From an uncultured Candidatus Saccharibacteria bacterium (GTDB taxonomy: Bacteria > Patescibacteriota > Minisyncoccia > Phycocordibacterales > CAIRYW01), in assembly GCA_964554765.1 (NCBI GenBank), contig CAZKPS010000001.1, positions 72,786 to 136,785 of the forward strand: 64,000 nt of DNA. The letters run 5' to 3'. The notes beneath the pieces were generated by a model that saw only the letters and a program-made list of their open reading frames with translations, was not told the DNA's origin and ran no database searches. Numbering within the stretch: position 1 is the stretch's first letter; each line of letters opens with the position of its first letter. The position numbers and the translations under genes were made by a program. Shown here piece after piece: positions 26,742 through 53,125 of this stretch.

Positions 26742-27170
26742 CTATGATCGATACTCTCTATACCTGATTGCCTTCTGATGACCTTTGCACTTTAGGTCAA
26801 AGGTTTTATTGTGACCAAAAGGAGATGTATACACCTCAACATTTGGCAGCAATTCGTGCGCAGATGAAACAATCTGTTTCGAAAGTTCAAGAGCAACATC
26901 GGGTGGGGCATAGCTGTGGGATATGTGCCCAAAAGCAGCAATGACCAATCGCATTGCACCGAGCTCAAAGAAAAATTTTTGTACATCCTTGAGTAATCGT
27001 TTTTTCTGTTTTTCTCCATCACCTTCCTCTACGTGAAAGAGGACAACCAAACATTCCTCGACCAGGAGTGATGAATTTTCAGGTGATATGATTTCGGGTG
27101 CTTGAATATATTCCGAAGAACTAACCCAAGAAAAACCAAAGCTTAAAGCGTCAAAAAACTGTGCCTTCAT
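26742..27170 (-). CDS. Stand-alone archaeal-type ThrRS editing-domain / DTD2-like D-aminoacyl-tRNA deacylase homolog
   Basis: Starting from MKAQFF (142 aa), the C-terminus reads SPFGHNKTFDLKCKGHQKAI and the middle reads LVVLFHVEEGD...AAFGHISHS. This resembles the archaeal ThrRS N-terminal editing domain (...APFGYYKAFKISCKGHP...). The 5' extension in the track ORF is discounted. Confidence 0.55.
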   Translation of the reverse strand: MKAQFFDALSFGFSWVSSSEYIQAPEIISPENSSLLVEECLVVLFHVEEGDGEKQKKRLLKDVQKFFFELGAMRLVIAAFGHISHSYAPPDVALELSKQIVSSAHELLPNVEVYTSPFGHNKTFDLKCKGHQKAIRYREYRS

Positions 27171-27479
27171 AGTGATAAGTGTGTTTAAAAGAACATATTC
27201 TGTAGAGGTACAGAAATAAAAAACCCTCCGGATCGCTCCGAAGGGTTTTGTGCCTTTAACAAAGATATCATTCGCAATAAAGCAAAAAACCGTTCGGAGC
27301 GATAAAACCAACGGCTTGCCACCACTTTGTGTTCTGAATATTGAATTTGCTTATTTTTTGAATCATTTGATTTTGTGTTTTGATTTCCTTATATCCCTCA
27401 TTAGTATTCACCCTTCAAATCAAAACTTATTTATGATATTATCACCATACTAGTATAGTAATACATAAAAGTCAAATCT

Positions 27480-29133: not shown

Positions 29134-29931
29134 TTATTTTTCCTCAGTTTTACCGTCCAACCTTTTCGCCTCTTTCCACGCTAGTTCAAAAAGTTTTTTG
29201 AGAGCATCAGCAATCTCTTCACTTTCTATAATAATACCAAGCTCCTCTCTCCAGGATGCAATCATCACTTTGTTATCATAAATTTCTATATCAGGAGAAA
29301 TGTCAAAAAGTTCTTTTGGTACAAGAGCGAGCTCTCGAGCCTCAAACGGATTCATCTTTTTTCGCTCAAGTGCCAACTCTGTTGCAGGAACAATACCCCG
29401 AACAAACAAACCCTTCGCCGCCCGTCTCCTGTAATAGTCAGGAAAATATCCTTTGAGAGTTTTGTGCATATCATCATAGGAAGCCATTGCCACAAAAGGT
29501 CCAGATGCAGTCAAGGTATCTTCATATACTTTTTTCATTCCCTCAATACCTTCATAAAATTTTACTTGTGGCCGAGTACCGACTTTATACATGGACTTAA
29601 GCTCGGGCAATAGTAATTGTGCATACCTATAGTCCTCTTCTTTTCGCTCAATATTGTGACGCAGAAATTTTAATATCTGTTCAGGATCCTCACATCGATA
29701 CTCTTGTTTTGGTTCTTTCCCAGAAATACTCACAAGACCCTTTTGTGCCAGGCTTGCCAAAATATCGTAGGCACCCGTTCTATTAATACCAGCCCTTTTT
29801 GCAATCTCACTTACTTTACCTTTTCCTATCCCTAAGAATGAAATGTAGAGCTCAGACTCTTTTTTGTTGAGACCCAGCTTTTGTAAAGCGTTTTGAAAAG
29901 TTCCACTCTGACCTTCTTCGTATTTTGTCAT
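29134..29931 (-). CDS. TrmB-family transcriptional regulator (close paralog of 62920..63708)
   Basis: wHTH (SEIAKRAGINRTGAYDILASLAQKGLVSISGKEPKQEYR). The C-terminal IYDNKVMIASWREELGIIIESEEIADALKKLFELAW is shared with the paralog. Confidence 0.75.
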   Translation of the reverse strand: MTKYEEGQSGTFQNALQKLGLNKKESELYISFLGIGKGKVSEIAKRAGINRTGAYDILASLAQKGLVSISGKEPKQEYRCEDPEQILKFLRHNIERKEEDYRYAQLLLPELKSMYKVGTRPQVKFYEGIEGMKKVYEDTLTASGPFVAMASYDDMHKTLKGYFPDYYRRRAAKGLFVRGIVPATELALERKKMNPFEARELALVPKELFDISPDIEIYDNKVMIASWREELGIIIESEEIADALKKLFELAWKEAKRLDGKTEEK

Positions 29932-31443: not shown

Positions 31444-32241
31444 TTATTCGTATTTCGTTCCTGTCCAACTCAATTCAAAAATCATCTTCATAAGTCCGTG
31501 AATTGTTGGATCTTCGATAATGACTCCTGTTAACTTTTCTTTACCGAGGTTTATGATCGAAACATTTTTTTCACCATAGATTGTAATCTCGGCCTTGTAG
31601 GGGAATTTCTCTGCCGGGATGAATCGTGCATTAGGCATCAATTCTTCTTTGAAATCACCGTACGATCTCTCAACAAAGGTCTTGTCTATGTTTGTATCTG
31701 GGAAAATAACTCTTGAACTAATTCCTTTCTGTTTCTTTGTCTTAATATAATTTCTAAAAAAGTCTCTCGGCACCTGTTCCTCCACCTCTTGAACATTCGC
31801 CCACGCGAGCATTTCATATGGCTTCGATACATTAATATGTGTTGCATAAATATCAAGCACACCCTCAATACCTTCATAATACGTAATCTTTGGTTTATCG
31901 GCCGCTCCCAATAACCCCTCGAGATCAGGAAGAATCCTCTGGACATTCTCAATCTCATCTTGGATGATAGACATTTTGGATTTGGCATACCGCACGAGCT
32001 TGGTTGGACTCTCGAGTTGATAGAATTGTTTATTCTTCTTTTCTATCTCATTCACTACCCCCTTTACTGACATTTGGGTGAGCAACATATAGACCGTACT
32101 TCGATTAAGTCCAGTGTATTCTGCAATCTTTGACGGATATGCTCCTCCGAGCTCAAGGAGTGCTACATATATTAAAGACTCTTTGTCAGAGAGACCTGAC
32201 TTTTGGAGCTTTTTGAGGAGATTTTCGTGTTTTATGCTCAT
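31444..32241 (-). CDS. TrmB-family transcriptional regulator
   Basis: wHTH (IYVALLELGGAYPSKIAEYTGLNRSTVYMLL) plus a C-terminal domain. Confidence 0.75.
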   Translation of the reverse strand: MSIKHENLLKKLQKSGLSDKESLIYVALLELGGAYPSKIAEYTGLNRSTVYMLLTQMSVKGVVNEIEKKNKQFYQLESPTKLVRYAKSKMSIIQDEIENVQRILPDLEGLLGAADKPKITYYEGIEGVLDIYATHINVSKPYEMLAWANVQEVEEQVPRDFFRNYIKTKKQKGISSRVIFPDTNIDKTFVERSYGDFKEELMPNARFIPAEKFPYKAEITIYGEKNVSIINLGKEKLTGVIIEDPTIHGLMKMIFELSWTGTKYE

Positions 32242-37419: not shown

Positions 37420-37440
37420 TTAACTACTCACACTTATACA

Positions 37441-37476
37441 AAAAGCCTCCCTTTCGGGAGGCTTTTTGTTTTTTGA
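37441..37476 (+). terminator. Terminator after hup
   Basis: Hairpin aagcctccc-tttc-gggaggctt followed by TTTGTTTTTTG. Confidence 0.7.
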
Positions 37477-37680: not shown

Positions 37681-37903
37681 TGATGTTGGGTTGAGAGATT
37701 ACAAAACTCTCAAGATTGAATTTAATTGTTTAACGTAAACTCATTACGATGCAATACGGAGAATGATAGATAAACAGATGATTGATGACAGAATTTCTGA
37801 TGGGATAAGTGAATCGGTCACAAATAATTTATTCACCTTCGTTCATAAATTTTTGCGACCCCGGCTCGCTTGTTTCCAAAGCTTTGGAAACACAGCTCCG
37901 CCC

Positions 37904-37952
37904 TTCGATTCCCTTACGTGAGTCGAACTATCGACTCACTGTCCCGCACATT
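37904..37952 (+). repeat. Inverted (mirror) copy of the 3' end of tRNA-Gly(UCC), interrupted by a 25-nt hairpin insertion
   Basis: ttcgattccctta + [cgtgagtcgaactatcgactcactg] + tcccgcacatt is the reverse complement of the tRNA T-loop, T-stem 3' and acceptor 3' (plus 4 nt of trailer), apart from the insertion. The insertion sits exactly at the T-stem/acceptor junction. Confidence 0.65.
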
Positions 37953-37973
37953 ATCGTCGCAGGCTCCTCAATG

Positions 37974-38044
37974 TGCGGGATAAGGGAATCGAACCCTTGT
38001 CTACTGCTTGGAAGGCAGTCATTCTACCACTAAACCAATCCCGC
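37974..38044 (-). tRNA. tRNA-Gly (anticodon UCC), CCA not encoded
   Basis: Cloverleaf with acceptor gcgggat/atcccgc, anticodon arm actgc-CTTCCAA-gcagt and T-arm aaggg-ttcgatt-ccctt. Coordinates are anchored to track ORF 37809..38033. Confidence 0.75.
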
Positions 38045-45046: not shown

Positions 45047-45781
45047 CTACTCACTTTTCTCCCAGAGCATCTTCCAAACCGATCTGAGACTCTCGGCAAT
45101 TGATTGATTTTTGATGATGATTCCCATCTCGTCTTTAGTTGAAAGCATCGCCACTTTATCGTCGAAGATCATAATTTCATTATTTATCCTGTGGTTTTCT
45201 GGTATCAGACGCACCTCTCTCAAAACTTCCTCCCCTTCTCTCTTATCCTGTTCCCCCACTTCACCACCTGGAGCGAATCCTCGAACCCTAATCCCCTTCT
45301 TAACCCTCTGCCTTACATAATTATCTACATACTCCCCACCAAAATACTCCTTCACCTCTTTGGAATTTGTAAAAGTCAAAATCTCTCCCTTTGATAATAA
45401 ACTTTCTTCATAGATTTGCTTAAGACCCTCCCTTGTACTGACAGTTGTGATTCTTGGCCTTTTCTCATTATTTTTATTTTTGACCAAGTCAACTAGACTC
45501 TCCTCGAGTATCCCGAGCCCCTCTTTATGTTTCTTTATCAGAATCTGAGGATTGAGCGCCCCAAAGTACATAACACCCTTCATCTTAAACCCTGACACAA
45601 TACCTCTACTCGAAAGGCGCTTCAGGACCTCAAAATTAGTAATCCGATTTAGCTTTGATTCTCTAGCAATCTGACTATTTGTTGCCGAACCGAGCCCAAG
45701 GAGTGCTAAATAAACCGCCGCCTCGTTCTCCGAGAATCCTAATCCACCAAGTTCTTTCCTGATATCAATCTGCATATTCAA
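45047..45781 (-). CDS. TrmB-family transcriptional regulator
   Basis: wHTH (AAVYLALLGLGSATNSQIARESKLNRITNFEVL). The C-terminal MGIIIKNQSIAESLRSVWKMLWE is shared with the family. Confidence 0.7.
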   Translation of the reverse strand: MNMQIDIRKELGGLGFSENEAAVYLALLGLGSATNSQIARESKLNRITNFEVLKRLSSRGIVSGFKMKGVMYFGALNPQILIKKHKEGLGILEESLVDLVKNKNNEKRPRITTVSTREGLKQIYEESLLSKGEILTFTNSKEVKEYFGGEYVDNYVRQRVKKGIRVRGFAPGGEVGEQDKREGEEVLREVRLIPENHRINNEIMIFDDKVAMLSTKDEMGIIIKNQSIAESLRSVWKMLWEKSE

Positions 45782-47175: not shown

Positions 47176-47685
47176 GTGAAATATTATACCTCCAAACTAG
47201 CTAGCATGTAATGTTGATAAGTCTAAGATCTATCCTTTGTGCCTGAGCATAGCTCCTGTTCCACATGAAATGTGCAAGAGAATAAACCACAGTACCCACA
47301 TGGCACGGAGCCGTATATTCCAGGGTTTTCATGTGTAACGAAATTTAGAGTGTTTCTTATGAAACGTTTTGTGGGTAAAACCCATAAAGTACACTAAATT
47401 CTGATTATATCCATACAAAATAAGGGTATTCTAGAAAAGTCCGATAAAATAGTTGTCTTTTATAGATTTGTCTTATACACATATCCACCGAGTTATCCAC
47501 AGTTTGTTGATAAATATGGGTGATTTCTGGGGAGAAAGAGAGGAAAAGGACAGGACGGATTAGGTCCTGTAGGTCTCAACAACTAGGGGAGAAAATCGGT
47601 CACAAGTTGTCCGTTTGCCGTCGCGAACAGACACTCGCAACTCCGGCTCGTCCGTTTTGTGTGCTCACAAAACATGACTGCGTCC

Positions 47686-47790
47686 TTCGATTCTCCCACG
47701 CAAAGTGCGTTTGGCATTTTGCTTACTCGCACAAAAATAGCAAAAACCTGGGTCAAATTGACCTAGGTTTTTGCTATTTTTGTGCGAGTA
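47686..47790 (+). repeat. Mirror copy of the tRNA-Gly(GCC) 3' end, with a 26-nt insertion, plus a ~31-bp palindrome that includes the tRNA acceptor 3' strand
   Basis: ttcgattctccc + [acgcaaagtgcgtttggcattttgct] + tactcgcac, followed by the palindrome tactcgcacaaaaatagcaaaaacctgggtc / gacctaggtttttgctatttttgtgcgagta. The right arm of the palindrome is the tRNA 3' end. Confidence 0.65.
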
Positions 47791-47853
47791 GGGAGAATCG
47801 AACTCCCGTCTCATCCTTGGCAAGGACGTGTTCTACCACTAAACCATACCCGC
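47783..47853 (-). tRNA. tRNA-Gly (anticodon GCC), CCA not encoded
   Basis: Acceptor gcgggta/tactcgc (one G-U pair), anticodon arm cgtcc-TTGCCAA-ggatg and T-arm gggag-ttcgatt-ctccc. Coordinates are anchored to track ORF 47520..47867. Confidence 0.75.
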
Positions 47854-48195
47854 TTTATTTGAAGTAGTATATAGGAAAATGTGAAAAAGGGAAGGGGGAA
47901 GTGGAAGAAAACGCTGGGTAGGAATCTCGAACCTTACAGGTTCAGTACACCTTTTGGTGATTTTGTTTCCTTAATCAATCACAAAATCAACTCAAAAGGT
48001 TCTCGAATCCAGCAGCGGAAGGAACTCGGTCGTTACACGACCAGTATCCTGATTGGAAATTTTATTTCGCAAGCTTATAAAATTTGCTCAATCGGGCTTC
48101 GAGTCCTGCACCGGCAGGAACTCTCGGCTTACAGCCGCAGTACAGGTTTCCCATTTTCTCGGATGAGTACATCCTCAAAAATATGGGAGAACCTT

Positions 48196-48288
48196 TTCGA
48201 GTCCTGCACGCAAGCGCCCCGCGCTTGCTCGGGTGCACAAAATAGAAAAACCGCCCCATAAAAGGCGGTTTTCTATTTTGTGCACCCG
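48196..48288 (+). repeat. Mirror copy of the tRNA-Arg 3' end, with a 19-nt hairpin insertion, plus a ~24-bp palindrome that includes the tRNA acceptor 3' strand
   Basis: ttcgagtcctgcac + [gcaagcgccccgcgcttgc] + tcgggtgca, followed by the palindrome gggtgcacaaaatagaaaaaccgcc / ggcggttttctattttgtgcaccc. The right arm of the palindrome is the tRNA 3' end. Confidence 0.65.
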
Positions 48289-48352
48289 GCAGGACTCGAA
48301 CCTACAAAAACGGTTCCGAAGACCGTTGTGATATCCATTTCACCACGGGTGC
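48281..48352 (-). tRNA. tRNA-Arg (anticodon UCG), CCA not encoded
   Basis: Acceptor gcacccg/cgggtgc, D-arm gtga-aatggata-tcac, anticodon arm acggt-CTTCGGA-accgt and T-arm gtagg-ttcgagt-cctgc. Coordinates are anchored to track ORF 47881..48261. Confidence 0.75.
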
Positions 48353-52177: not shown

Positions 52178-52220
52178 TACTACATACTACATACTACATA
52201 CTACTTACTACTTCTTACTA
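52178..52220. repeat. Heptamer microsatellite, (ATACTAC)x4 followed by degenerate copies, immediately 3' of the xer stop
   Basis: Tandem atactac atactac atactac atactac ttactac ttcttac. Coordinates may be off by 1 nt. Confidence 0.55.
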
Positions 52221-53125
52221 TGAAATTTTTTATGCACTTCTCGAAGATGTGAGTCAGTGACGTGGGTATAGATTTGAGTAGTTGAGATATTTGCGTGTCC
52301 CAAAAGCATCTGTACAGAACGTAAGTCAGCACCATTGCGGAGCAAATCAGTCGCAAAACAGTGTCGTATCACGTGGGGAGTTACTTTTTTGGATACCCCT
52401 GCTTTGATTGCATAATATCTGATTAGTCTTTGAATTGAGCGGGGAGTCAGGGCTCCGTCTTCTTTTTTTGCTCTTTCATTGCCCACTTTTACAAAGAGAG
52501 CACCGTCGAGGTCTTTACGGAGATTCAAATATGTTTTCACCATTGATTTTGCTTCATCGGAAAGGAAAACAACACGCACCTTACCACCTTTACCTCTGAT
52601 AGAGAGCTCATCCTGACGAAGATCAATATCCCGATCAAGTGAACAAAGCTCGGACACTCGAAGTCCAGTAGAGAAGAGGAGTTCCAAAATAGCCTTACCA
52701 CGAGCCTTTTTTTCTTGATTCTCCTCATTATTTGGCGCATCAAAGATTCTCCGGAGTTCATCTGCAGAGATGAGGTCGAGTGATCTCTCGCCGGTTTTCG
52801 CAAGCTCTATATAGTCTGCCGGTAGGGTAGTAATCCCTCGTTTTGCTATGTATTTGAGAAATGCGCGGAGAGCAATGAGATAATAGTTTTGAGTTCTTTT
52901 CTTGAGAGTTTCATTGAATTTACGATTGTTGCCTGTTACCTGTCGGTTAAGCCAGAGACGATATTCACGCATTATTTCTGGAGTAATATCTTTTGGATCG
53001 GTCTTTTTAAAGAATTCGAGAAACCGAGTAAGGTAATGATCATAATTCTCAACAGTCTTGAGGCTGCGACCTTTTTCGATTTCGATGTGTTCAAGGAATT
53101 GTCTTTTGAGGGTGAGTAGATCCAT
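52208..53125 (-). CDS. Tyrosine recombinase, XerC/XerD family
   Basis: 305 aa with an N-terminal SAM-like domain and the catalytic motifs RHCFAT and LGHANISTTQIYTHV. Confidence 0.85.
   Translation of the reverse strand: MDLLTLKRQFLEHIEIEKGRSLKTVENYDHYLTRFLEFFKKTDPKDITPEIMREYRLWLNRQVTGNNRKFNETLKKRTQNYYLIALRAFLKYIAKRGITTLPADYIELAKTGERSLDLISADELRRIFDAPNNEENQEKKARGKAILELLFSTGLRVSELCSLDRDIDLRQDELSIRGKGGKVRVVFLSDEAKSMVKTYLNLRKDLDGALFVKVGNERAKKEDGALTPRSIQRLIRYYAIKAGVSKKVTPHVIRHCFATDLLRNGADLRSVQMLLGHANISTTQIYTHVTDSHLREVHKKFHSKK

Follow-up and report, generated by a model that had tools for sequence, protein, structure and literature searches.

Genomic islands and prophages with tyrosine integrases insert at the 3′ ends of tRNA genes and duplicate the 3′ segment of the tRNA as a direct repeat, so that the proximal copy keeps the tRNA intact while the distal copy is free to decay; their distribution is patchy, and tandem accretion occurs. 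Phage CTX at dif and integron cassettes at attC use folded single-strand, strand-specific sites, in which an inverted pair of core copies forms a hairpin stem that mimics the duplex target, and leave the target copies in the order plus/minus/plus; promoterless cassettes are arrayed behind one promoter-proximal site and are shuffled. MITEs with RNA-level hairpins (Correia/NEMIS, RPE, and ERIC) are short, non-coding, multicopy elements that carry terminal inverted repeats and are co-transcribed with neighboring genes. Structured RNAs located immediately 3′ of a tRNA on the same strand include theta (HDV-like) ribozymes (PMC10879173) and tRNA-snoRNA genes. Bidirectional intrinsic terminators consist of an A-tract, a GC stem, and a T-tract. 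Finally, retroviral/LTR primer-binding sites are complementary to a tRNA 3′ end, and H/ACA pockets are bipartite guides.

We analyzed a 64,000-nt stretch (the window) of an uncultured Patescibacteria (CPR) genome. The window contains four tRNA genes, all on the minus strand. An earlier note had proposed that tRNA-Gly(GCC), tRNA-Arg(UCG), and tRNA-Gly(UCC) are each followed by a reverse complement of their own T-arm and acceptor 3′ strand (hereafter, the mirror), split by a hairpin, and by a palindrome that uses the tRNA 3′ end as one arm. This observation was confirmed, as was the note’s statement that the spacers of Gly(GCC) and Arg are related to each other (11/12 positions). The fourth gene, tRNA-Pro(UGG), for which the note had found no degenerate version of the design, has none; its best 12-mer match has five mismatches. 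However, the note had described only half of the unit. It missed a second copy of the Arg T-mirror, a conserved structured module (“cargo”) that follows each mirror, a direct duplicate of tRNA nt 56–74 (T2; the tRNA’s own segment is T1) that closes each unit, and the presence of three tandem units in the Arg trailer. Two cargo classes occur in the window: type A follows both Gly tRNAs, and three type B units follow Arg. The features are collected in the table; loci of related genomes are designated by L numbers, and R1 and R2 are the covariance models of type A and type B.

Features of the tRNA-linked units and of related sites in the window (positions are those of the window)
Position	Strand	Feature	Support
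48280..48352	-	tRNA-Arg(UCG); nt 56–74 (CGAGTCCTGCCGGGTGCAC) at 48280-48298 form T1	ARAGORN; Rfam tRNA, 63.4 bits; sequence
48239..48279	.	Arg spacer palindrome: A-tract, GC stem, T-tract	Inverted-repeat analysis; terminator scan, called on both strands
48230..48238	-	Mirror of the Arg acceptor 3′ strand (nt 66–74); extends the palindrome into the tRNA	Inverted repeat 48230-48249 against 48269-48288, 20/20, ending in the tRNA
48210..48228	-	Junction GC hairpin (gcaagcgc-ccc-gcgcttgc) splitting the Arg mirror	Sequence; homologous hairpin in L002
48196..48209	-	Mirror of Arg T-loop and T-stem 3′ strand; left arm of type B unit 1	48196-48207 complementary to 48289-48300, 12/12
48114..48208	-	Type B cargo unit 1; degenerate direct copy of the tRNA end at 48107-48126; absent from L002	R2, 74.2 bits; alignments
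48018..48110	-	Type B cargo unit 2; own T-mirror (second copy) at 48098-48111, degenerate direct copy at 48009-48028; orthologous to the single unit of L002	R2, 83.7 bits; direct and inverted repeats; comparison with L002
47919..48014	-	Type B cargo unit 3; oldest and most decayed, arms no longer match tRNA-Arg	R2, 74.7 bits; inverted repeat
47782..47853	-	tRNA-Gly(GCC); nt 56–74 at 47782-47800 (T1)	ARAGORN; Rfam
47733..47781	.	Gly(GCC) spacer palindrome, terminator-like	Inverted repeat; terminator scan (minus strand); orthologous palindromes in L002, L004, and L055 differ in sequence but stay palindromic
47724..47732	-	Mirror of the Gly(GCC) acceptor 3′ strand (tactcgcac)	41-nt inverted repeat 47716-47756 against 47758-47798, 90% complementary, tRNA 3′ end as right arm; co-varies with the tRNA in L055
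47698..47723	-	26-nt insertion between the two halves of the mirror; contains a 5-bp hairpin	Sequence
47686..47697	-	Mirror of Gly(GCC) T-loop and T-stem 3′ strand (ttcgattctccc); 5′ strand of closing stem P0	Complementary to 47791-47802, 12/12
47588..47698	-	Type A structured module (cargo)	R1, 87.7 bits, E 7e-22; covariation
47580..47598	-	T2: decayed direct copy of tRNA-Gly(GCC) nt 56–74; 3′ strand of P0	Alignment
47550..47570	-	Terminator-like hairpin just after T2; probably the tRNA’s original terminator	Terminator scan
37798..38044	-	Third instance: tRNA-Gly(UCC) 37973-38044, spacer 37950-37972, acceptor mirror 37942-37949, inserted hairpin 37917-37940, T mirror 37904-37916, type A module 37806-37916, T2 37798-37816	R1, 98.2 bits; alignment; mirror continuous in L417 and L418
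44839..44909	-	tRNA-Pro(UGG): empty site, no mirror and no cargo	Orthologous tRNA-Pro genes carry cassettes in 6 of 54 other species
52208..53125		Generic XerC/D-like gene, 4 kb away	ORF survey

To estimate how often the design occurs, we examined loci of 80 related Patescibacteria genomes chosen only by cca synteny. The 12-nt T-arm mirror (at most one mismatch, within 150 nt) was found downstream of 38 of 245 tRNAs, while it was found upstream of 0 of 245 and, with a shuffled probe, in 0 of 245, which is far beyond chance. Of the covariance model hits, 52 of 55 for type A and 34 of 37 for type B lie within 600 nt downstream of a same-strand tRNA. In metagenomes, 55 of 71 type A hits lie behind tRNAs of at least 26 anticodon types. 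The order T1, mirror, T2 was seen in every unit. The direct repeat starts at C56 in 27 of 45 units and ends at nt 73/74 in most. A frame consisting of mirror and duplicate without cargo was sought and never found, the smallest cargo being 57 nt. The layout X, reverse complement of X, cargo, X also occurs at two non-tRNA sites, where the arms match only their own flanks.

Both cargo classes are supported as structures by covariation. Type A has 27 pairs, 16 of them compensatory; 91% of cells are paired compared to 65% in shuffles (0 of 500 shuffles reach this level) and 35 to 46% when the partners are slid. Type A also carries conserved tandem G-A pairs that look like a protein-binding motif. 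Type B has 16 pairs, 13 of them compensatory. Wobble pairs favor the tRNA strand in both (84 GU to 27 AC in type A; 12 to 4 in type B). In contrast, the frame hairpins are near-perfect Watson-Crick palindromes with almost no wobble pairs and no strand bias (32 GU on the sense strand and 45 on the antisense, with equal free energy). Neither class matches Rfam 15: searches with E up to 1 of the window’s tRNA region and of 20 related loci returned only tRNAs, plus sub-threshold microRNA-like hits on the hairpins, and no ribozyme, riboswitch, or sRNA model matched, including the HDV-like, hammerhead, twister, pistol, hatchet, and group I models.

The mirrors follow their own tRNAs. In L055, the Gly(GCC) T-stem is CCCCC and the acceptor is TGCCCGC, and the mirror reads GGGGG and GCGGGCA; the Arg mirrors of the window and of L002 each follow their own tRNA. 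In the strain-level relatives L417 and L418, the Gly(UCC) mirror is a perfect continuous 21-mer, and the window’s hairpin is literally an insertion into it. Lack of conservation in relatives, which had been named beforehand as grounds for rejection, was thus not observed. The mirror stays matched to the real tRNA in 31 of 35 informative units while T2 decays, and every allele at a given tRNA has a matched mirror.

At the same time, the units are patchy and turn over. Only 11 to 24% of species carry a mirror at each orthologous tRNA. The Arg site is empty in L004 (a 35-nt gap) compared to 426 nt in the window, and Gly(GCC) carries type A in the window, type B in L002, and B then A in L004. L057 and L060, whose flanks are 94 to 98% identical, carry different cassettes behind tRNA-Arg. 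The window, L417, and L418 have the identical tRNA but differ in spacer, cargo hairpins, the hairpin insertion, and truncation of T2. L072 holds two 99% identical copies of a 138-nt unit, mirror included, at two loci; whole-unit tandem duplicates occur in L300 and L298, and modules are shuffled within the long L390 array. The cargo behind tRNA-Arg in L066 is 95% identical to that behind tRNA-Gly in L056, while the arms are tRNA-specific.

Compared to tRNA-integrating islands and prophages, the units share the direct repeat of the tRNA 3′ segment, with the proximal copy completing the tRNA, and presence/absence polymorphism at orthologous sites. However, they are only about 140 to 250 nt long, contain no integrase or any ORF, carry an inverted copy of the att segment inside the element, and have a structured RNA as cargo. 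No large elements with the same repeats were found: no long-range repeats enclose genes, and no distal copies of tRNA nt 56–73 occur 0.6 to 12 kb downstream, other than other tRNAs. As with CTX and attC sites, the copies are ordered plus/minus/plus, the inverted pair would form a hairpin stem that mimics the duplex target, the structure is strand-specific, and promoterless cassettes are arrayed behind one promoter-proximal site and shuffled, but the arms are tRNA sequences (..GAATCG / CGATTC..) with no GTTRRRY/RYYYAAC core, no dif-like sequence, and no IntI, and the cassette content is essentially the hairpin’s own conserved “loop.” Like MITEs, the units are short and non-coding, carry terminal inverted repeats, occur in multiple copies, and would be co-transcribed with neighboring genes. 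Unlike in MITEs, the arms are copies of the specific target tRNA rather than a family-wide terminal inverted repeat; the duplication is 18 to 19 nt of the tRNA itself, insertion occurs only at tRNA 3′ ends in a single orientation, and the interior shows multi-helix covariation and conserved unpaired bases. As with theta ribozymes and tRNA-snoRNA genes, a structured RNA lies immediately 3′ of a tRNA on the same strand, but the fold is a three-way junction closed by tRNA-derived arms. Like bidirectional terminators, the Gly(GCC) and Arg spacers consist of an A-tract, a GC stem, and a T-tract, but the stem continues 8 to 9 bp into the tRNA acceptor strand and is then followed by the T-arm mirror; the Gly(UCC) spacer is not a terminator at all. 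As for primer-binding sites and H/ACA pockets, about 18 to 21 nt are complementary to the tRNA 3′ end, and this bipartite complementarity is interrupted by a hairpin. Yet no complement of CCA precedes the acceptor mirror (TTT or AAT is found instead of TGG), no Cbf5 or H/ACA boxes are present, the target has no unpaired pocket nucleotides, and no reverse transcriptase was found among 30 window ORFs and 8 L390 ORFs. Literature searches, including a reading of the TIGR-Tas paper, found no description of these units.

Our preferred explanation, which we hold tentatively, is that the mirrors belong to recombinationally mobile non-coding cassettes lodged at the 3′ ends of tRNA genes. On the tRNA strand, each reads: spacer (often a terminator hairpin that insulates the tRNA), reverse complement of tRNA nt 56–65 (often extended to nt 74 and sometimes split by a hairpin), structured RNA module (type A, type B, or others), and direct duplicate of nt 56–74. 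In this view, the mirror and the duplicate are the terminal inverted repeat of the cassette and pair as P0; because the right arm is a copy of the tRNA end, the left arm is necessarily complementary to the tRNA as well, which produces the apparent palindrome described in the note. The layout with its sharp boundaries, the family-wide association with tRNA 3′ ends, always in the same orientation, the covariation of the modules, and the presence/absence, replacement, tandem accretion, and intragenomic copying of units are established by the analysis. In contrast, it is inferred that the units spread by recombination within the conserved nt 56–74 segment, which would duplicate it, with an order of copies like that left by elements integrating through a folded hairpin; homology-facilitated recombination after DNA uptake is an alternative route. 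It is likewise inferred that, after integration, quasipalindrome template-switch correction keeps the mirror matched to the selected tRNA while the distal duplicate decays, and that the cargo is an RNA or a single-stranded DNA structure; any activity of the XerC/D-like product on such sites would also be inference. Several results do not fit easily. No recombinase, transposase, or reverse transcriptase is linked to the units: neighboring genes are housekeeping genes, no recombinase lies next to the L390 array, and the XerC/D-like gene is the only candidate seen. No excised or circular form has been observed, and the model does not explain how the arms are retargeted to at least 26 different tRNAs. 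The L072 duplicate and the 95% identical cargos could arise by gene conversion rather than transposition, the conserved unpaired nucleotides and strand-specific wobbles of the cargo point to an RNA function that a purely selfish DNA element would not need, and the persistent match of the mirror could instead mean that mirror:tRNA pairing is itself selected.

The interpretation in the earlier note was only partly supported. The conserved design of T-arm mirror, junction hairpin, acceptor mirror, spacer, and tRNA is real, recurs in relatives, and co-varies with the tRNA, but the mirror is not a tRNA-plus-trailer device by itself. A fold-back device, in which read-through transcripts would pair the mirror with the T-arm and acceptor 3′ strand and create a long duplex or three-way junction that controls or marks tRNA 3′ maturation, for example through RNase III or RNase E cleavage, is not supported, and we consider it unlikely. 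The preserved and co-varying complementarity agrees with it, the fold-back is the predicted minimum-free-energy structure (z-scores of −9 to −11), and at Gly(UCC), where the spacer is not a terminator, the mirror must be co-transcribed. However, this predicted fold would destroy the cloverleaf and is thus a hazard rather than a help; the unit’s patchiness and its replacement between near-identical strains show that it is dispensable for tRNA maturation; terminator-like hairpins precede the mirror at Gly(GCC) and Arg; the frame hairpins lack strand bias; and neither the cargo nor the direct repeat is explained. The link to cca, which the note had pointed to as lying immediately downstream, is not supported either, since cca adjacency is plain synteny that holds in all 80 relatives regardless of the mirror. 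A further unlikely possibility is that the mirror is an antisense guide, bipartite and interrupted as in H/ACA pockets, fused to a protein-binding scaffold and directing an unknown RNP to the tRNA or its gene, with the distal copy masking the guide. A 12- to 21-nt 5′ antisense segment followed by an 80- to 110-nt conserved multi-helix scaffold, the tandem G-A pairs, the tRNA-specific arms around interchangeable scaffolds, and the matched mirror of every allele are consistent with this idea, but no associated protein gene was found, the arms of free-standing copies match only their own flanks, the guide would be sequestered in P0 or in the fold-back, and no bacterial system is known to work this way.

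Neutral palindrome growth next to an ordinary structured sRNA gene co-transcribed with tRNAs, with mirror and duplicate arising and being homogenized by template switching at terminator hairpins and at the sRNA’s terminal stem and having no function of their own, is also improbable, though slightly less so. The Watson-Crick frame hairpins without strand bias, the tracking of the nearby selected tRNA arm, the usual palindromic style of terminators in this genome, and the existence of tRNA-linked ncRNAs elsewhere speak for it; sharp and universal boundaries across at least 26 tRNA types, the absence of mirrors without cargo, and the replacement or copying of whole units as blocks speak against it. 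Least likely is a tRNA-end mimic, in which the acceptor mirror together with the duplicate acceptor strand and discriminator would form a tRNA-like helix, allowing RNase P, RNase Z, and the CCA-adding enzyme to trim the cargo out of the co-transcript. The end of the repeat at nt 73/74 and the location in tRNA transcription units agree with it, and tRNA-snoRNA genes and mascRNA provide precedents. However, the acceptor part of T2 is poorly kept (0.40 mismatches per site compared to 0.11 in nt 56–65) and no better kept when an acceptor mirror is present (0.50 against 0.34), many frames lack the acceptor mirror altogether, and T2 is truncated in L417 and L418 although the cargo is intact.

A bolder reading, which remains possible but doubtful, is that the units represent a new class of mobile non-coding element in Patescibacteria: hairpin-bounded RNA-gene cassettes that home to the T-loop-to-3′-end segment of tRNA genes. 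The mirror would be the targeting determinant, either by folding with the duplicate into a single-stranded mimic of the tRNA gene (integron/CTX-like) or by acting as an antisense guide, and the result would be tRNA-anchored, promoter-sharing arrays of at least two new structured RNA classes. If mobile, the cassettes would be the smallest known tRNA-targeting elements and a natural example of cassette arrays made of RNA genes rather than protein genes. If the mirror is functional at the RNA level, it would be a new way of coupling tRNA genes to antisense or guide-like RNAs. The analysis adds at least two well-supported structured RNA classes absent from Rfam and a recurrent genome architecture to a huge, little-studied bacterial radiation.

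Other origins were considered as well. A phage origin found no support: 95 viral contigs matched a type A pattern, but none matched the covariance model, so these hits are chance, while for hits of the type B pattern in viral contigs the 15 specified bases give an expectation at chance level. A relation to REP/RAYT rested on a GTAGC after some palindromes, but this motif is just the mirror of GCAC with an extra A, and its orientation is wrong. An exact-protein look-up for the NUDIX neighbor found nothing, and that for cca gave only a 2.4-kb contig that breaks at the tRNA-Arg locus. These repeats break assemblies at tRNA loci and could mislead tRNA and att-site annotation in CPR genomes; contig L416 ends about 100 nt upstream of cca, at the tRNA-Arg locus.

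On the minus strand, where the four tRNA genes of the window lie, tRNA-Gly(GCC) is followed by a 49-nt palindrome; by GTGCGAGTA, the reverse complement of acceptor nt 66-74; by a 26-nt insertion; and by GGGAGAATCGAA, the reverse complement of nt 54-65. In the same way, tRNA-Arg(UCG) is followed by a 41-nt palindrome, GTGCACCCG, a GC hairpin, and GCAGGACTCGAA. The same design was found at tRNA-Gly(UCC) but not at tRNA-Pro. The two spacers of tRNA-Gly(GCC) and tRNA-Arg are related. All coordinates and repeats listed in the earlier note proved correct, and its observation of mirrored tRNA ends behind these genes is confirmed and can be generalized. All three cassette-bearing tRNAs end in ..GCA followed by an encoded C74 and then by an A-rich spacer.

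To determine what lies beyond the mirrors, we aligned the three trailers. The sequence after the T-arm mirror is conserved between the two Gly loci and reads GAATCGAAGGRCGSAG, a covarying hairpin, CGAGCCGGRGTYGC, a second hairpin, and then TTGTGAC; it ends in a degenerate direct copy of the tRNA's own 3′ end (CGATTC..). The Arg trailer holds a second exact copy of its T-mirror and three tandem repeats of a different module. The real unit, missed in the earlier note, is therefore the tRNA (copy T1), spacer, mirror, structured module (hereafter cargo, of type A behind the Gly tRNAs and type B behind tRNA-Arg), and direct copy T2; the duplicated segment includes C74. The arms of the third type B unit (GGATTCGAGAA / CGAGATTCCTACCCAGCG) match neither tRNA-Arg nor each other well, and this unit may be a relic from another tRNA or an old, decayed one.

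Coordinates of features in the window and in related loci (handles beginning with L denote individual loci or contigs other than the window)
Feature	Location	Strand
tRNA-Gly(GCC)	window 47853 to 47782	-
Palindrome following tRNA-Gly(GCC)	window 47781-47733	
tRNA-Arg(UCG)	window 48352 to 48280	-
3′ ends of the three cassette-bearing tRNAs	window 37973, 47782, 48280	-
Second exact copy of the Arg T-mirror	window 48098-48111	
Type B unit, first	window 48114-48208	
Type B unit, second	window 48018-48110	
Type B unit, third	window 47919-48014	
XerC/D-like tyrosine recombinase	window 52208-53125	-
Protein with threonyl-tRNA synthetase editing domain (PF08915)	window 26742-27311	-
Paralogous TrmB-family regulators	window 29134-29931, 31444-32241, 45047-45781	-
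HU gene terminator palindrome	window 37438-37469	
Array of five type A units behind tRNA-Gly(UCC)	L390:4528-5124	-
tRNA-Lys(UUU) fragment with type A module	L387:652-910	
Free-standing type A module after an rplL-like ORF	L307:1483-1569	
Free-standing type A module after a ClpP-like ORF	L062:468-584	

To assess conservation, we searched for relatives with the neighboring CCA-adding enzyme and obtained 80 species-level loci, all from Patescibacteria (Paceibacteria; Candidatus Taylorbacteria and allies) and all with the same Arg / Gly / Pro / Gly / cca synteny. In these loci, 57 of 248 tRNAs have a reverse complement of their own T-arm (at most 2 mismatches in 12) within 150 nt downstream. With a stricter test, the mirror was found downstream of 38 of 245 tRNAs, compared to 0 of 245 upstream and 0 of 245 with a shuffled probe. 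Each orthologous tRNA carries the mirror in only 11-24% of species. The cca adjacency pointed out in the earlier note is therefore ordinary synteny, and the mirror is an accessory feature.

The cargo is structured. For type A (17 sequences), RNAalifold predicted 27 pairs, 16 of them with compensatory changes. The helices are a closing stem P0, in which the mirror pairs with T2; a 3-bp helix plus hairpin with a conserved GGA/GA internal loop; and a long hairpin with an invariant G-U pair. On 55 model hits, 91% of cells are paired, compared to 65% in shuffles (0 of 500 shuffles reach the observed value) and 35-46% when the 3′ partners are slid, although the alignment is fitted to the model, which inflates the figure somewhat. 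For type B (18 sequences), 16 pairs were predicted, 13 of them compensatory, with a conserved RUACUG joiner and a UGUAA loop. Wobble pairs favor the tRNA strand, with 84 GU to 27 AC in type A and 12 to 4 in type B; the modules therefore fold as RNA, or as single-stranded DNA, of the tRNA's polarity. Neither class nor anything else in these trailers matches Rfam 15. Other cargo types also exist, for example, the one shared by loci L066 and L056.

The association with tRNAs was estimated by model searches. The type A model found 55 hits in 1.3 Mb, of which 52 lie 14-272 nt downstream of a same-strand tRNA. The type B model found 37 hits, 34 of them downstream of a same-strand tRNA and exactly three in the window. 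A pattern scan of metagenomes followed by the model gave 77 more type A hits; of the 71 with enough upstream sequence, 55 follow tRNAs of at least 26 anticodon types. A few copies stand free at the 3′ ends of protein genes, as in L307 and L062, and have the same X / rc(X) / cargo / X layout built from the local sequence; in L062 the unit is followed by a terminator. Viral contigs gave only chance pattern matches.

The direct repeat starts at C56 of the T-loop in 27 of 45 units and ends at nt 73/74 in most, while longer repeats are whole-unit tandem duplications (loci L300 and L298). When T1 and T2 differ, the mirror agrees with the real tRNA in 31 of 35 cases. T2 decays at 0.11 mismatches per site in nt 56-65 but at 0.40 in nt 66-74, and its acceptor part is no better kept when an acceptor mirror is present. 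The acceptor mirror therefore belongs with the palindrome that reaches into T1, not with a tRNA-like helix at the end of the cargo. In contrast to the cargo, the frame hairpins (spacer, acceptor mirror, and junction hairpin) are almost pure Watson-Crick and show no strand bias.

Comparison of related loci revealed turnover. In L004, the Arg site is empty, with 35 nt to the next tRNA compared to 426 nt in the window. L002 has one type B unit, orthologous to the window's second unit, while the window's first unit is an extra block flanked by a 14-nt repeat of the mirror. At Gly(GCC), all four close relatives share palindrome, mirror, and hairpin, but the cargo then differs: A in the window, B in L002, and B followed by A in L004. 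Loci L057 and L060, whose flanks are 94-98% identical, carry different frames and cargos behind the same tRNA-Arg. Strain-level relatives found through the identical HU protein (L417 and L418) have the identical tRNA-Gly(UCC); their mirror is a perfect continuous 21-mer, and the window's 25-nt hairpin is an insertion into it. Their spacers and cargo hairpins differ, and T2 is truncated.

Whole units and their parts are also copied and rearranged. L072 carries two 99% identical 138-nt copies of spacer, mirror, cargo B, and T2, one behind tRNA-Arg and the other 2 kb away behind a decayed tRNA-like remnant; the mirror therefore travels with the unit. In the five-unit type A array of L390, arms and cargos are shuffled: cargo 1 and cargo 4 differ at 2 of 64 nt but have different left arms, and the arm of unit 2 equals that of unit 4, which implies module shuffling at the ..AATCGAA|cargo junction. 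Cargo cores are 95% identical behind tRNA-Arg in L066 and tRNA-Gly(UCC) in L056, while the arms match the local tRNA; identity starts right after ..TCGAA and stops right before CGA... In L387, a 5′ fragment of tRNA-Lys(UUU) ends exactly at G53 and is followed by a hairpin, a type A module, and an inverted T-arm copy, after which comes the intact tRNA-Lys with its own cassette. This looks like a rearranged or aborted insertion at the T-loop. The repeats probably also fragment assemblies, since an independent assembly carrying the identical cca protein (L416, Logan contig ERR4682891_443763) breaks about 100 nt upstream of cca, at the tRNA-Arg cassette locus.

No unit has an ORF, no integrase-sized island using the same repeats was found, and the neighboring genes are housekeeping genes. 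The only recombinase seen is an XerC/D-like protein (Phage_integrase plus SAM-like N-terminal domain) encoded about 4 kb from the tRNA cluster, which is probably the housekeeping Xer.

If the whole trailer is transcribed, the predicted minimum-free-energy fold pairs the mirror with the tRNA's T-arm and acceptor 3′ strand and abolishes the cloverleaf (-131.6, -107.5, and -133.2 kcal/mol, with z-scores of about -9 to -11). At Arg and Gly(GCC), the spacer is called as an intrinsic terminator, on both strands for Arg, which would normally keep the mirror out of the tRNA transcript; at Gly(UCC), the spacer is not a terminator. The mirror therefore looks like a liability for the tRNA rather than a maturation aid, which fits its accessory, polymorphic distribution. 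The HU gene terminator is a perfect A-tract / GC / T-tract palindrome, and long symmetric, probably bidirectional, terminators seem to be the usual style in this genome.

Our preferred, though tentative, reading is that these are recombinationally mobile, non-coding cassettes that target the conserved nt 56-74 segment of tRNA genes. In this view, the mirror and the duplicate are the cassette's terminal inverted repeat and form the closing stem of a structured RNA or ssDNA module, and the palindrome using the tRNA end follows automatically because one arm is a copy of that end. The plus/minus/plus order of the target copies is the order left by elements that integrate through a folded hairpin site (phage CTX at dif, integron attC), and the arrays behind a single promoter-proximal site resemble integron cassette arrays. 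While the layout of the units, their association with tRNAs, the covariation of the cargo, and the turnover come directly from the sequence comparisons, mobility is inferred from them, and the integration route is inferred by analogy alone. Maintenance of the mirror against T1 can be explained by quasipalindrome template-switch correction, an established bacterial mutational process, but equally by selection.

Among the alternatives, we consider neutral palindrome growth around an ordinary tRNA-linked sRNA unlikely, an antisense-guide RNP slightly less likely still, and an RNA fold-back device, which the mirror's apparent cost to the tRNA does not favor, less likely again. A tRNA-end mimic for processing is the least likely, given the poor conservation of the acceptor part of T2. 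The interpretation in the earlier note is only partly supported: the design is real, conserved, and co-varying, but the emphasis was wrong, and a tRNA-maturation or cca device is not supported.

The units share the duplicated tRNA 3′ segment with tRNA-integrating islands but lack an integrase and are ten to a hundred times smaller. They share hairpin-site logic with attC and CTX but lack the core motifs. They share size and inverted repeats with MITEs, but their arms are target-specific and their interior is a conserved multi-helix fold. They share position with theta ribozymes (PMC10879173) but not the fold. We found no description of them in the searchable literature. We tentatively regard them as site-specific insertion cassettes distinguished by the new RNA classes that they carry, with a substantial chance of being something more unusual.

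Elsewhere in the window, a free-standing protein carries the archaea-type threonyl-tRNA synthetase editing domain, which is unusual for a bacterium, and three paralogous TrmB-family regulators occur within 17 kb.
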